Numbered from the stretch's first letter, positions 42,850 to 48,120 are shown. The stretch is 64,000 bases of DNA from Fimicolochytrium jonesii (GCF_025526975.1 NW_026515672.1:620001-684000), one strand, 5' to 3'. A program made the numbers and translations. Notes: generated from the letters alone by a model not told the origin.

Positions 42850-44521
42850 CTAGCGGCCACGTGAAGAAGACCTAGATGAAGACGATCCGCAAGACCGGCT
42901 TCGGCTGCGACTCCTGCTAACGCTGCTACTAGGGGAACGACGACCACGTGCACGTCCTCGAGATGAACTGCGTGAGTAGTTTCGTCGACCCCTCGACCAG
43001 GACCTGGACCGCGAATCCGACGGACTCCTTCGCCTGAGCGGGGTCCTGCTCAATGATCGGCCTCTTTTGACTTCGGGGGCAGGGCGTCCGCTGGAAGGCG
43101 GTGCCCGATCTTTCGAAAGGGAACGTGAGACGGAACGTTTCCTGCCTCGAACGGCATCGTCTCGGATTGAAGGACGGCGAGGTGGGGGACCACTGGCCGG
43201 AACCGCACGAGTCGCTTCCGGCTGATGGTGCCGTCTGTCTGGGTGGATGAATGACTGTTCGGCTTTGACTGTAACGGCCGGCTTATCGGGTATGGTACGA
43301 GGAGGAGGAGATCGAGGGCGTCGGTCGGGAAGGCTGTCCCTGCGTTTGTCGGGGACGGTGCGACCCGGGGGTGACCTCGATCGTCGATCATGAATGCTAT
43401 CCTTACGAGCCTCCCTACGAGGTGGCGACGCCTTGTTCTTCAAAGCCACCCGTTTGCTGTAAGGAGATAGGGAGCGCGACGGGGATCGAGGTGGGCTCCT
43501 CTGGCGGTCCACAGATGGGCGGGGAGGTGGCGAACGAGAAAGCTTCTGGCGTCTCCGTGGAGGAGACCGAGAACTGGAAGGTGAGCGAGACGGCGCGCGA
43601 TTGCGTTTGCGAGACCTAGACTCGGATCGCGACCTTGATCGTGAGCGCGATACAGAAGGGCCCCGCGGCGCATCCCGGCCCCGGCCTCGGAGACGGTCGT
43701 CTTTACGACCTGGTGAATTTCTGCGCCGCTCGTCACGCCTGGACCTATCTACACCTCGGCTCCGGGCCTCTTCTTCCTTCTTCAAACGTTTTTGCTGCTC
43801 CTCGCGTTCCTTCTTTCTAAGTTTAGCCTGCTTTTCGGCAGCCTTTGCCTCTTCCTTCCTCCGCTTCTCAGCATCCTTTTGTCGTTGCTCTCGCTCTTCT
43901 TCTCGGCGTAGGCGCTCCGCAACCTTTTCTTGCTTCAAACGTTCCTGACAAGCAAACAAGCATTAAATCATAGGAGCAGATTGAGGTCCCAAATCAAAGC
44001 TTGATGTACCTGCAATTCACGATCAAACGCAGCGCCAGCGACAAAGTCGTCTCTAATCCCAAACGCCTGCCTAGCCTTCTCATCCGCCTTTTGCTTGGCC
44101 TCCGCCAGCTCATGCACCTGGTGCTCCTGCAATTTCTTCACATCGACGCGCATCTTCTCCAGATTCTTCAGCAACTCGATCCTCAAAGCGGCCACCTGTG
44201 TCTCGATATCGTCATCGTCTACATTTTCACCCTCGAGCTGATCTTGCAACATCAGACATTTGAGCTCGATTTCCCGTTTCTTCTGGTGGTCGAGAATGTC
44301 TTGGTTGGGCTTGCGGAGCGTTGGAGGCTTCTCTTCGAAGGAGGAAAAGTCCTGGTGACGCTCCCGAGGGCGCAAGGAAGACAAGTTGCGCTGAACATAG
44401 CCGTTTGTGCCTGACCCACGCGCCGTTGCGAGACCTGTAGTTGATCGAACACAGTCAGCCTTCGTCTCGGTTCCGAACGCTGAGAAGGCTGATAGGACGA
44501 CTTACCGATGCCATTGTACAT
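42850..44521 (-). CDS. CWC21: Pre-mRNA splicing factor Cwc21/SRRM2-like with long RS tail, 3 exons
   Basis: MYNGIG|LATARGSGTNGYVQRNL, ILDHQKKREIELKC, then an extensive RS/SP-rich C-terminus. Confidence 0.93.
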
Positions 44522-44823: not shown

Positions 44824-46369
44824 ATGGCGGCCCCAGTACCACCGCCAAAGATCGTCGTCGGCCAGCGCTACAAGGCGACCGCCGCATACGCTCCCGTCCA
44901 CAGCGACGAGGTGCGGCTGGCGCTCGGGCACGTCATCACCGTTCTGCATTCTTATGACGATGGGTGGGTGCTTGGGAAGAACGAGACGACTATGGTGAGT
45001 GGGATGTCTTTCTTGCAGCACGGGAGGTTTTTGTGCTCTTAGCTCTCCTTGAGAAATGAGGTCCTCATGTCCCAATAAGTGGCACTAGCACTCTATCTCC
45101 GAGCATGAACTAACGCGCCCAATCTTTGCAGGGGACAGGTTTACTACCAGGCAACTTCCTAGCGTCACTCGATGCACCGGACGTCCTCAAGGCAGAGCAG
45201 AAAGTAGCGGACAAACGGAAGTCTTCCATGCAACCCTTCACCAACACAAGCGGCAATGGCGCCGCGAGTAGGCAAGGGTCCGTCAAGAGGGAAAGAAACG
45301 CGCTGAATGGAAGCCCACCTCTATCGCCACCGATAGATACACAAGAGCCGGAGGTCACATCCAGGTTTACTGCTCCGGATTTTCCCAGCGGACGGCCAGC
45401 AGGTCCCGTTGAGCCACCATCGACTGCCACCCTCAATGGGACTGATAAGGAGGAGGCTAGCAGGAAGTTGAAAGAGGTGCTGAACAAGAAGAATCCGCGA
45501 TTCAAAGTGCCAGCAAACATTGGCAGCTTGAGAATCATGATTGTTGGAGATTCCGGAATTGGAAAGGTATTTCGGCAGATTCTGTCAACACATGTGCAAT
45601 ACAAATGCCTGACCGTTTACTGCCTATACAGACAGCATTGATCCAAGCTTTCTTCAAAACTTCCGAAATTGTCGAAACCGCGTCTCCCAAAGACGTAGAA
45701 TCCTTCCCAGGCCTGTCCATCGTCCAAAGCATGGCATCGACGATCCCGGCAAACCAGCTCCACATCGGGGAGGACCATCTCAACATCACCTTCTTCGAAC
45801 CTCCTGGATTCGGTGCCCATACCGACGCGATGAGGGTCATCCGTCCCACCGCAGAGTTCAACACGCTCCAGTTCCAAAAGACGGATCGCGTATTTGTCAG
45901 GGACAAAGCCATTCCCACCGACACGATACTCCGTTTCCTCAACTCCGGGAATGGCGCACACACCCACATCGACGTTTGCATCTACGCTGTCCTACACAGG
46001 CTGAAGGCTGTCGATTTGGAGTACATGAGGCAGTTGGCCCCAGGCGTAGTACTGGTGCCCGTCATCCTGAAATCCGATACCATGAAACCGGAGGAAGTTA
46101 TGGCCCTCAAAGTGTCTATACTAGAAGAGACTCGGCGGGCCGGGATCGATCTGTATGGATTCGGCCTGCAGCACCAGGATCTGCTGCAGATTGCTACGGC
46201 GGGCGTGCAGGGAGCGATTCCGTTCGCAGTGAGCGTAGTGGACGATAAACCGAAAGACAGTGTGAACGAGTTTGAACAGTTGAAGGAGCACGTCTTTTAT
46301 CGGGCGCAAGAGCTGCGTCAGCAGACGGCAGAGAACTTTGTTAACTGGCGTGCAACGAACATTCAGTAG
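44824..46369 (+). CDS. SH3 domain fused to a divergent septin-like P-loop GTPase, 3 exons
   Basis: SH3 YKATAAY..DEVRL..YDDGW..|GLLPGNFL; GTPase LRIMIVGDSGIGK|T, NITFFEPPGFG, HIDVCIYAVLHRLKAVDLEYM, LVPVILKSDTM, IPFAV. Confidence 0.82.
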
Positions 46370-46770: not shown

Positions 46771-48120
46771 CTACTTGGACGAGATTTCCGACCCGACTTT
46801 ATCTGTGATTTGCAGGAGAAACAAGGGAGAAGCTGTCAGTATCCCACAGCCCAAGCACAACTGCCAACGTCCCGCAACGGGATTGCTTACATGTGGCAAT
46901 AGAGTCCCAGTTGATCTTGCTTCGCGTGATGGGTAAAGCACGTCGCAGGGCTTTGAAGATGGATTCAGACATTTCCGCAAACTTTTCGCTCAGTGCTACT
47001 TGGAAATCGCTTTCCGCTTTGGCGATTTGCTTGATGACCGCTTTTGCGAAAGCTTGTGGGTCCTGTAGTCAACGAACAGCCGTGGATGAGATATGCGTCC
47101 AGAGCCCAACCAAGCACTGAGATTTATCGGCGGGCAAGCACATACGCCCGAGTCCGTGACCGAGAACGTAATGTCCTTGTTGGCCGTCAGCTGCACATTT
47201 CCGTCTTCGTAGTAGTGCACGTTCACTTTCAACGATCCCGTCACTTCCGTAGCTCCAGGTTGCGTTATCCACACAGACCGCCATCTTCCGTTCCTACGAA
47301 GCAAACATACGGTAGTGAGAACCGGACCTGCCTCCGCTAGAACGCTCCCTTCTCGCGCTCCATACCAGAAGTTGTTCGGGTTATATTTGTTATCCACAAT
47401 CGCCAAGACCAGCTGCTCCCCTCCGTAGACAGTGGCGGTGCCGTCCGGGTAGTGGTCTTCTATGTACGCAATCGATGCGGTGTCCAACGCTTGCCTGTAC
47501 CAAAGATTATCAGTACTGTATTCAGTCAAGGGGAGACGGTGTCAGCAATCGGGAGCTCACCTGTATGGCTCTGAACTGCCGTGACTGTCAGCAGGTTGAG
47601 CGTCTGATGCCGTCTGAAGATCGTCTTGTGAGGACAGTCCAATTCATCCAACTCCGAAGTTCATCCCACCATACATACGTGCCGTATGTGGTCCACCACA
47701 AACGAGGTCCCAGACCGAGGGTCCACGAAGCGCTCGCCGTCCAGCTGTCCATACTTTGACAGAATAACCTATGTGCGAATGCCCTGCCAGTCAACAGCCC
47801 ATCCCATCTTCCTGACCTGGTGCATCAGAGCGGGCGCACCTGATGTTGCTGACCCGGCGGTACGACCGTCGCAAACTGCTCGAGGTTGTACTCCTGGAAG
47901 CAGCTTGTCACTCCGTTCTCTAGCAACGCTTCGTCTTCGAGTAGCACCCGAACATCTAGGGTGGGATGGGTGTTTGAGCGGGCAGTCCAAAATCAGTTCG
48001 CCGGCGAAGACACTCAGACCCGAACTAACCGTTGAAGACGTCGTTTATTTCGCCCGGAGGAGATTCTTTGAGGAAGCCGCCTACGATTTGGAGCTTGGCT
48101 TCGTCGGATAATTCGGACAT
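46771..48120 (-). CDS. CAP1: F-actin capping protein alpha subunit, multi-exon
   Basis: SPPGEINDVFN|DVRVL, YNPNNFW|NGRWRS, VHYYEDGNVQL, FKALRRALPITRSKINWD. Confidence 0.95.

Follow-up and report, generated by a model that had tools for sequence, protein, structure and literature searches.

Surveys recognise five septin groups in opisthokonts and report that, among these, only a few Group 5 proteins retain the arginine finger (PMC11238149; 10.1101/2024.05.23.595546). Delic 2024 (PMC11238149) regards this residue as ancestral, required for G-homodimers and lost in most opisthokonts, and names the path from a single arginine-finger septin to hetero-oligomers as an open question. The AspE preprint reports that only some Group 5 septins have kept the residue (10.1101/2024.05.23.595546), and its site is also described in Cavini 2021 (PMC8640212). 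Here we describe a gene of Fimicolochytrium jonesii, a chytrid of the Spizellomycetales, found in a window of 64,000 nucleotides (nt) (NW_026515672.1:620001-684000, the whole stretch of DNA analysed). Its product of 447 amino acids (aa), called the SH3-septin below, carries an N-terminal SH3 domain and a septin-fold GTP-binding domain that is related to canonical septins and differs from them in several of their defining motifs.

The SH3 and the G-domain are linked by one reading frame and the fusion is real: the last SH3 strand and the P-loop residues GDSGIGK are both encoded in exon 2 in a single frame, and the layout is conserved across chytrids. The spliced product is a 100% match to the annotated F. 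jonesii database protein P0001, named there as a septin-domain protein. A Pfam search with the whole protein detected SH3_9 at 37.4 bits (cut-off 30) and Septin at 85.5 bits (cut-off 26.2), the latter over positions 4-207 of the 280 in the profile. The original prediction, made from the sequence alone, had proposed three exons encoding an SH3 and a septin-like GTPase; this observation is confirmed, with G1 GDSGIGKT, G3 EPPG, G4 KSD, PFAV, SPPLSPP and PVEPP all found in place, and its interpretation is partly supported. The separate SH3 exon that it assumed does not exist, as intron 1 cuts the SH3 domain, intron 2 cuts the P-loop and exon 2 bridges both domains. The arginine finger, the loss of the beta-meander and an SH3-less fungal sister family had been missed.

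We give a probability of about 0.5 to the following reading: the protein combines an SH3 domain with the GTP-binding domain of a fungus-wide septin-like family, acts as a GTP-dependent pair and not as a filament, and uses the SH3 for targeting, as an arm that an R-x-S-S-M motif of the same protein keeps closed. The basis of this reading is sequence and structural models.

A septin-like family across fungi

Word-index searches listed 11 of 778, 21 of 1788 and 53 of 7992 candidates, and a profile run against 1.84 billion representatives matched 3638 proteins at E ≤ 0.001, the best 150 of which were considered. A total of 187 proteins were gathered; 38 with an incomplete domain were left out, and the family counts given here rest on the 149 that were kept. 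Quick IQ-TREE trees were built, with support from the Shimodaira-Hasegawa-like approximate likelihood ratio test (SH-aLRT) and with 9 canonical-type septins as references, a set without Group 5-8 sequences. All 61 rows with a detected SH3 fell inside one branch of 71 rows (SH-aLRT 88); every named member of this branch is a chytrid, with 22 labels at genus or species level and one Chytridiales. Its sister branch consists of 69 rows (SH-aLRT 90) of Ascomycota, Mucoromycota and Mortierella, with an SH3 in 0 of 69, and the 9 canonical-type septins branch apart from the family (SH-aLRT 100). A subset tree of 108 rows gave 89 for the chytrid branch, 85 for the sister branch and 100 for the separation of the canonical septins. 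With moderate confidence, these trees point to one origin of the SH3-septin fusion, and the divergent septin-like class with a built-in SH3 that had been predicted is indeed conserved across chytrids. Ten rows of the chytrid branch have no detected SH3, and several of them are short at the N-terminus. Spizellomyces punctatus, which is reportedly transformable (PMC7213984), has the family member SPPG_00158.

The ascomycete members of the sister branch carry the Pfam domain DUF6780 (PF20571), for which P0001 has no match. Together with their Mucoromycota and Mortierella kin, these Septin+DUF6780 proteins share with the chytrid proteins GD-x-G-x-GK, AST, (H)R-L/I-KPVD, the missing meander and a short alpha6, and they are the best structural neighbours of the SH3-septin. 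They differ in having no SH3 but a long insert at switch I/beta2-beta3, DUF6780 and often a hydrophobic C-terminal segment. Such a hydrophobic segment, 19 residues long, occurs in 38 of the 69 sister rows and in 4 of the 71 from the chytrid branch, which suggests, from sequence comparison, that a tail in the sister branch and an SH3 in chytrids could be two ways to place one domain. No function for the Septin+DUF6780 proteins was found in the literature searched. Pan 2007 (PMC1931588) set aside GzeHyp7 and NcrHyp7 as 'septin-like', and these two may belong to the SH3-less sister branch.

No account of the SH3-septin was found in the literature searched, a scope that excludes most subscription journals. 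The term 'SH3' is absent from the main texts of Pan 2007, Auxier 2019 and Delic 2024. Nine family motifs had no match in four supplements of Delic 2024 (254-septin set), one of which was a partial file and in which line wrapping may split motifs; a tenth motif matched algal rows only. Auxier 2019 (PMC6323724) filtered proteins by domain content and lists six Batrachochytrium, five Gonapodya and five Aspergillus septins. Sep7 and Sep8 are treated as Group 5 septins with unclear roles (PMC10952683, PMC11213810, PMC13679648), and a UniProt survey of membrane-spanning septin-domain proteins does not discuss the SH3-septin family in the part available (PMC10690161). The domain pair is already visible in database annotation. 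The fungal septin-like family is apparently undescribed.

Some members show further variation. Powellomyces hirtus has four paralogues on separate branches (P0002, P0030, P0169 and P0067), of which P0067 has no SH3, and P0096 of Mortierella sp. is a family member fused to C-terminal ankyrin repeats. Three long records (P0027, P0050 and P0028) add glycosyltransferase, thioesterase or other sequence to the SH3-septin and are probably merged gene models. A branch with Sugiyamaella (P0098, P0101-P0105, P0107 and P0114-P0119) has members as long as 1568 aa, and several of them carry N-R where the H-R described below would be. When a profile of 20 SH3-less relatives was compared with solved structures, Atg32 did not appear among the 60 best of 100 rows at E ≤ 1.

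Septin-fold domain, arginine finger and nucleotide site

Monomer models reached a predicted local distance difference test score (pLDDT) of 75.6 with 11 aligned sequences and of 86.0 with 61. Compared with five septin chains the model gave Z scores of 19.3-22.4, versus 13.2 for the best non-septin GTPase. The best structural match was yeast Shs1 (chain 9gd4_D, Z 22.4, root mean square deviation 3.4 Å over 231 aligned residues), and the top rows of a Foldseek search were all septins, so the structural check foreseen in the original prediction places the domain among septin folds. The nearest structures in the Atlas were Septin+DUF6780 clusters, with template modelling (TM) scores of 0.83 and 0.80; canonical septins were lower, at 0.72-0.77. 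Canonical septins of Groups 1-4 (PF00735; SEPT2/7/9, Cdc3/10/11/12 and Shs1) share with the SH3-septin the fold, G1, G4, the trans-loop 1 histidine His(Tr1), the trans-loop 2 glutamate Glu(Tr2) and the long alpha2, alpha5' and alpha6. Unlike them, the SH3-septin has an N-terminal SH3 and an arginine finger, and it has lost several motifs of the septin type.

These motifs were scored by the septin criteria given in Pan 2007 (PMC1931588) and Cavini 2021 (PMC8640212). G1 (GxxxxGK[ST]) and G4 (xKxD) are present as GDSGIGKT and KSD, and at the G-interface H324 is found in 69 of 71 and E357 in 51 of 71 chytrid rows. The G3 motif DxxG is replaced by EPPG in the F. jonesii protein. For Sep1 (ExxxxR), there is no Glu after alpha2, and the pattern was found in 1 of 54 scorable chytrid rows; the control of the pattern failed, with just 1 of 9 canonical rows scored, although E-xxxx-R is visible in their printed rows. 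Strict Sep2 (DxR[VI]Hxxx[YF]F[IL]xP) was found in 0 of 71 chytrid and 0 of 69 sister rows versus 5 of 9 canonical rows. In Sep3 (GxxLxxxD), H-R-L-xxx-D is retained (69/71) and the Gly falls in a deletion that makes trans-loop 1 three residues shorter in 70 of 71 chytrid rows. Sep4 (WG) is absent from all scorable family rows (0/62 chytrid, 0/40 sister) and present in 9 of 9 canonical rows, and RxYxWG was found in 0 of 140 family rows versus 8 of 9 canonical ones; the segment LVPVILKSD, previously taken as a septin-like S4, is G4. The G5 glycine (PFAxxG) was found in 3 of 71 chytrid rows versus 9 of 9 canonical rows. The polyacidic region is too weak for use, with 1 acidic residue here, a chytrid median of 3 and 3-7 in canonical septins (6/9 rows matched).

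The septin unique element, described in Cavini 2021 as essential and exclusive to septins (PMC8640212), does begin at PFAV as had been predicted, but its beta-meander is gone: the models show no strands beyond residue 402, with alpha5 and alpha6 present. The latter lacks one residue in 64 of 65 scorable rows of the chytrid branch and in 59 of 63 of the sister branch. Since the F. jonesii protein stops 3 residues past the septin domain, it has no C-terminal coiled coil; this earlier claim holds for it and for the 41 of 71 chytrid members without a tail, but not for the family, as tails of more than 80 aa are found in 28 of 71. The protein therefore has a septin fold, yet by Sep1-4 and the unique element it is not a canonical septin. 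Filament growth is unlikely because Sep1, the alpha6 glutamate with its bulge and the beta-meander are gone, and we think it fairly probable that the protein would not extend into canonical filaments. The septin of the alga Chlamydomonas reinhardtii has the same kind of alpha6 deletion and made no NC contact in crystals (Cavini 2021, PMC8640212).

The Chlamydomonas septin (Group 6, 5irr) is alike in other respects. Arg follows the trans-loop histidine in 70 of 71 rows of the chytrid branch and in 54 of 69 of the sister branch, and this His-Arg aligns with PPHRL of 5irr. His-Arg at the Sep3 site, a short trans-loop and a predicted G-homodimer are shared with this septin and with the Group 5 septins that keep an arginine finger (AspE); unlike the SH3-septin, the published rows of Groups 5 and 6 keep the WG meander, and these septins have no SH3. 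Dimer prediction with two copies of aa 158-447, GTP and Mg, and with 3 controls, gave a G-interface homodimer with a score of 0.79 versus 0.00 for the best control, contacts that agreed 100% across runs, and a pLDDT of 86. The predicted interface comprises the P-loop (197-200), switch II (263-269), residues 323-329 and G4 (349-354), and R325 contacts residues 198-199 of the partner's P-loop. In microbial benchmark sets, 21 of 30 homodimers and 0 of 23 monomers attained the score mark; in eukaryotic sets, 17 of 29 homodimers and 0 of 30 monomers did. The predicted dimer shows likeness to septin G-dimers and is not proof of binding. On balance, two copies would probably meet at the G-interface, with His324 and Arg325 reaching the partner's phosphate site as in the Chlamydomonas septin.

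Several points weigh against such a dimer. Of the 9 canonical-type rows, chosen by likeness to the family, 3 have Arg after His as well, and Glu357 is missing from the listed interface contacts. Among the 7 eukaryotic dimers for which no older relative had been solved, just 1 attained the mark, and the score for the SH3-septin may reflect structures that the predictor already knew, because septin G-dimers have been solved. The loss of the beta-meander, of Arg(beta-b) and of the G5 glycine might weaken both the dimer and nucleotide binding. The evidence on a closer kinship with the algal septin is mixed: 5irr ranks first for the 61-aa stretch from Sep2 to G4 by a margin of just 0.4 bit, and the family profile scores it at 92 bits, compared with up to 125 bits for animal septins.

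As G1 and G4 are intact, the domain very probably binds guanine nucleotide. The change from Asp to Glu at G3, which had been proposed as a feature of the class with altered nucleotide handling, is not one: Asp is kept in 62 of 71 chytrid rows and Glu is found in 9, eight of which form one branch around the F. jonesii protein (SH-aLRT 93; 7 rows with 91 in the 108-row tree). Inactive septins may carry Ser, Asn or Glu at this site (Cavini 2021, PMC8640212), and EPPG is, by sequence comparison, the mark of one small subclade with that precedent. The position of G229 is a candidate site of the switch I threonine; it holds Ser or Thr in 39 of 68 rows of the sister branch and, among chytrid rows, in 32 of 62 of the Asp type and 1 of 9 of the Glu type. 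Given the Glu at G3 and probably no switch I threonine, the chances seem even that the F. jonesii paralogue hydrolyses GTP slowly or not at all. With its arginine finger retained, it could then serve as a GTP-locked scaffold or as a trans activator of a DTPG paralogue such as P0022, a protein of the same species (which has at least one paralogue) with a long tail.

An active homodimeric GTPase switch, like that of the Chlamydomonas septin or AspE, would instead require that Glu258 is tolerated and that T239 or another hydroxyl acts as the switch I threonine. G1, G4, His324 and Arg325 are intact as such a switch would have them, and a dimer is predicted. The register of the threonine differs between methods, being T239 with MAFFT, I232 with HMMER/HHalign and G229 by the T-x-x-I pattern with the strand limits of the model; under the MAFFT register the threonine is kept, and T239 is conserved in 67 of 71 rows. 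P0012 combines EPPG with a Thr at the -9 site, and the correlation of Glu with a missing Thr is not independent, because eight of the nine Glu-type rows form one clade. These last points count against the preferred reading. Against an active switch, what comes after T239 is no strand but Ile-Pro and a loop of very variable length, which in other fungi runs for 24-52 residues up to G3, and Glu at the G3 site is reported in inactive septins, as noted above. We consider an active switch unlikely, though to be kept in view, and continue to prefer a GTP-dependent pair of which this paralogue may be a poorly hydrolysing member.

SH3 domain and the RKSSM motif

The N-terminal domain has the features of an SH3: the Pfam match, the fold and the W, P and acidic binding residues, with three acidic residues invariant in the family. 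SH3 surface positions 8, 10, 37 and 54 are generally aromatic (PMC5823434). Among chytrid family SH3s, an aromatic residue was found at position 8 in 1 of 48, at position 10 in 50 of 50, at position 37 in 0 of 52 and at position 54 in 52 of 52.

C-terminal to the SH3, the motif R-x-[STA]-S-[LMF], which is RKSSM in F. jonesii, was found in 43 of 61 linkers versus 1.9 expected, in nearly all cases 12-51 residues after the domain. In the tandem-SH3 members P0016 and P0018 (Zopfochytrium and Cladochytrium tenue) the motif, as RTASL or RNASL, has been copied along with each SH3. P0018 also has a third, partial SH3-motif unit. In the model built from the deep alignment, aa 81-90 have a pLDDT of 80 without helix or strand, and aa 91-144 fall below 50. 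The yeast Fus1 SH3 binds R[ST][ST]SL or Rx[ST]SL ligands and not PxxP (PMC5417721, PMC5823434), and the family motif fits the type Rx[ST]SL. Both systems have a ligand-type motif and non-aromatic residues on the canonical surface; they differ in that the motif lies here on the same chain and that the changed positions are 8 and 37, versus 37 and 54 in Fus1. Motif and surface changes are consistent with Fus1-type binding by this SH3.

The best sequence match of the SH3 among solved structures was p47phox (NCF1), with a score summed over two domains. The SH3 tandem of p47phox is closed by its own arginine/serine segment and opened by phosphorylation. It too has Ala at SH3 position 8, but p47phox has two SH3s and a PX domain and no GTPase, and it serves as an analogy only.

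The simplest reading, and a likely one on the models, is that the SH3 is bound in cis by the arginine-led RKSSM ligand and can be released by phosphorylation. The adjacent motif would thus keep the SH3 closed until phosphorylation of its serine, or a competing partner with R-x-S-S-L, frees it and the dimer docks at a cortical or membrane site, a role that would fall to a hydrophobic tail in relatives without an SH3; we hold this sequence of events to be somewhat more probable than not. Against it, the docking of RKSSM on the SH3 is drawn from pLDDT only, because contacts are not visible in the monomer model, and in the model from the shallow alignment the whole of aa 73-118, RKSSM included, has a pLDDT below 50. 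A mild enrichment of the motif is seen in relatives without an SH3 too (11 of 55 N-termini versus 4.1 expected).

The same enrichment, and the absence of the motif from 18 of 61 SH3 members, would suit a motif that is only a site for a basophilic kinase or for 14-3-3, with the SH3 open and binding outside partners. R-x-S-S-L/M fits the basophilic kinase consensus. Such a site would not, however, be expected to be duplicated with each SH3 copy, to keep its distance from the SH3, to be ordered in the deep-alignment model or to equal a known non-PxxP SH3 ligand type, and we regard a kinase or 14-3-3 site alone as a minority possibility. Overall, the protein probably functions in the manner of the homodimeric algal septin, and its SH3 arm is probably gated by the RKSSM of the same chain.

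Standing among septins, gene model and neighbouring genes

The SH3-septin could also be a far-diverged Group 5 septin (AspE/AspE2-like), attached to core septin rods and connecting these with SH3 partners. The arginine finger is retained in some Group 5 septins, Knufia AspE binds Cdc11 (10.1101/2024.05.23.595546), and the SH3-septin has a basic helix ahead of beta1. However, the published alignment shows the RK-FPW-G meander in A. nidulans AspE and the SH3-septin family has none, and family motifs are absent from the 254-septin set within the supplements searched (one partial). A Group 5 origin of this kind appears improbable.

More speculatively, the family may be a ninth, overlooked lineage of fungal septins, which kept the ancestral arginine-finger dimer and never joined the filament. 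In moulds, a membrane tail would position its GTP-gated dimer; in chytrids, an SH3 that is auto-inhibited and switched by phosphorylation would do so, and the chytrid paralogues would be split into an active subunit and a GTP-locked, trans-activating one, encoded by the gene described here. We offer this as a tentative view, more likely wrong than right. If true, the family would offer a living example of how homodimeric septins became heteromeric, and one of its proteins would be the first of septin fold to carry a regulated adaptor of its own. The arginine finger is kept here by a whole fungal family that lacks the meander, which has been called essential, and that has apparently been left out of the data sets of septin surveys. 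With several paralogues per chytrid genome that differ at G3, the path from an arginine-finger septin to hetero-oligomers becomes testable. Another fungal fusion of a divergent septin-like domain with a different module is Bhr1 of Dichomitus squalens (PMC13532241); unlike the SH3-septin, it is a Zn cluster transcription factor with degraded G1 and G3.

The original prediction had raised possible auto-inhibition of the SH3 by PxxP motifs of the same protein; in this version the protein would be a polymerising septin. The F. jonesii linker does have four PxxP versus 1.8 expected, and PVEPP lies in blocks with a pLDDT of 57 and 76 and may be partly ordered, which speaks for PxxP and against RKSSM as the ligand. 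Across the family, however, the 61 SH3-member linkers contain 129 PxxP versus 114.4 expected from shuffles, as composition would give, and 16 of them have none; the F. jonesii linker has no class I or II motif, the first proline pocket has lost its aromatic residue, and the filament motifs are missing. This version is very improbable, and R-x-[STA]-S-[LMF] is the conserved candidate ligand instead.

That the fusion is an annotation artefact joining two genes is hardly credible: no RNA read or contig crosses a junction, but exon 2 carries parts of both domains in one frame and the same architecture recurs in 61 relatives. One presumed-RNA run gave just two contigs of 151 nt, both inside exon 3; as RNA covers neither junction, we infer the splicing. 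Retention of intron 1 would lead to a stop after aa 72, and retention of intron 2 to a frameshift and then a stop. At the intron 1 junction a span of 12 residues is the same in 48 of 61 aligned relatives, and at the intron 2 junction a span of 10 residues in 61 of 61. The features of the locus are listed in Table 1.

Table 1 Features of the SH3-septin gene of F. jonesii, with positions counted from the first letter of the window
Feature	Position	Strand	Remarks
Exon 1	44824..44994	+	aa 1-57; start codon and most of SH3; no in-frame ATG upstream
SH3 domain	44860..45170	+	aa 13-70, interrupted by intron 1; surface positions 8 and 37, usually aromatic, are Ala and Val
Intron 1	44995..45131	+	137 nt, GT-AG, phase 0; interrupts SH3
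Exon 2	45132..45566	+	aa 58-202; SH3 end, linker, basic helix, P-loop to GK; single frame
RKSSM	45216..45230	+	aa 86-90; instance of the conserved R-x-[STA]-S-[LMF]; candidate SH3 ligand in cis; putative kinase site
Proline-rich linker part with SPPLSPP and PVEPP	45312..45419	+	family conservation absent
Helix aa 160-175 and basic stretch ahead of beta1 (alpha0/polybasic-like)	45438..45512	+	candidate membrane contact
G1 P-loop GDSGIGK/T	45546..45634	+	split by intron 2
Intron 2	45567..45631	+	65 nt, GT-AG, phase 0; splits P-loop between K202 and T203
Exon 3	45632..46369	+	aa 203-447 and stop; remainder of septin-fold domain
G3 EPPG	45797..45808	+	aa 258-261; Glu replaces Asp
His324-Arg325	45995..46000	+	trans-loop 1 histidine and arginine-finger position
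G4 KSD (aa 349-351) and trans-loop 2 Glu357	46070..46096	+	
PFAV, short loop replacing beta-meander, alpha5, alpha6	46220..46360	+	alpha6 one residue shorter than in canonical septins

Two genes flank the SH3-septin gene, both on the - strand. An F-actin capping protein alpha gene (PF01267, E 4e-29) lies tail to tail with it, at 46996-47541 with flanking exons to about 48170. On the other side, a gene for a Cwc21/SRRM2-like splicing factor (PF08312) is located at 42850-44521 in a head to head arrangement; as its start is about 300 bases from the SH3-septin ATG, the two genes may have a common promoter.

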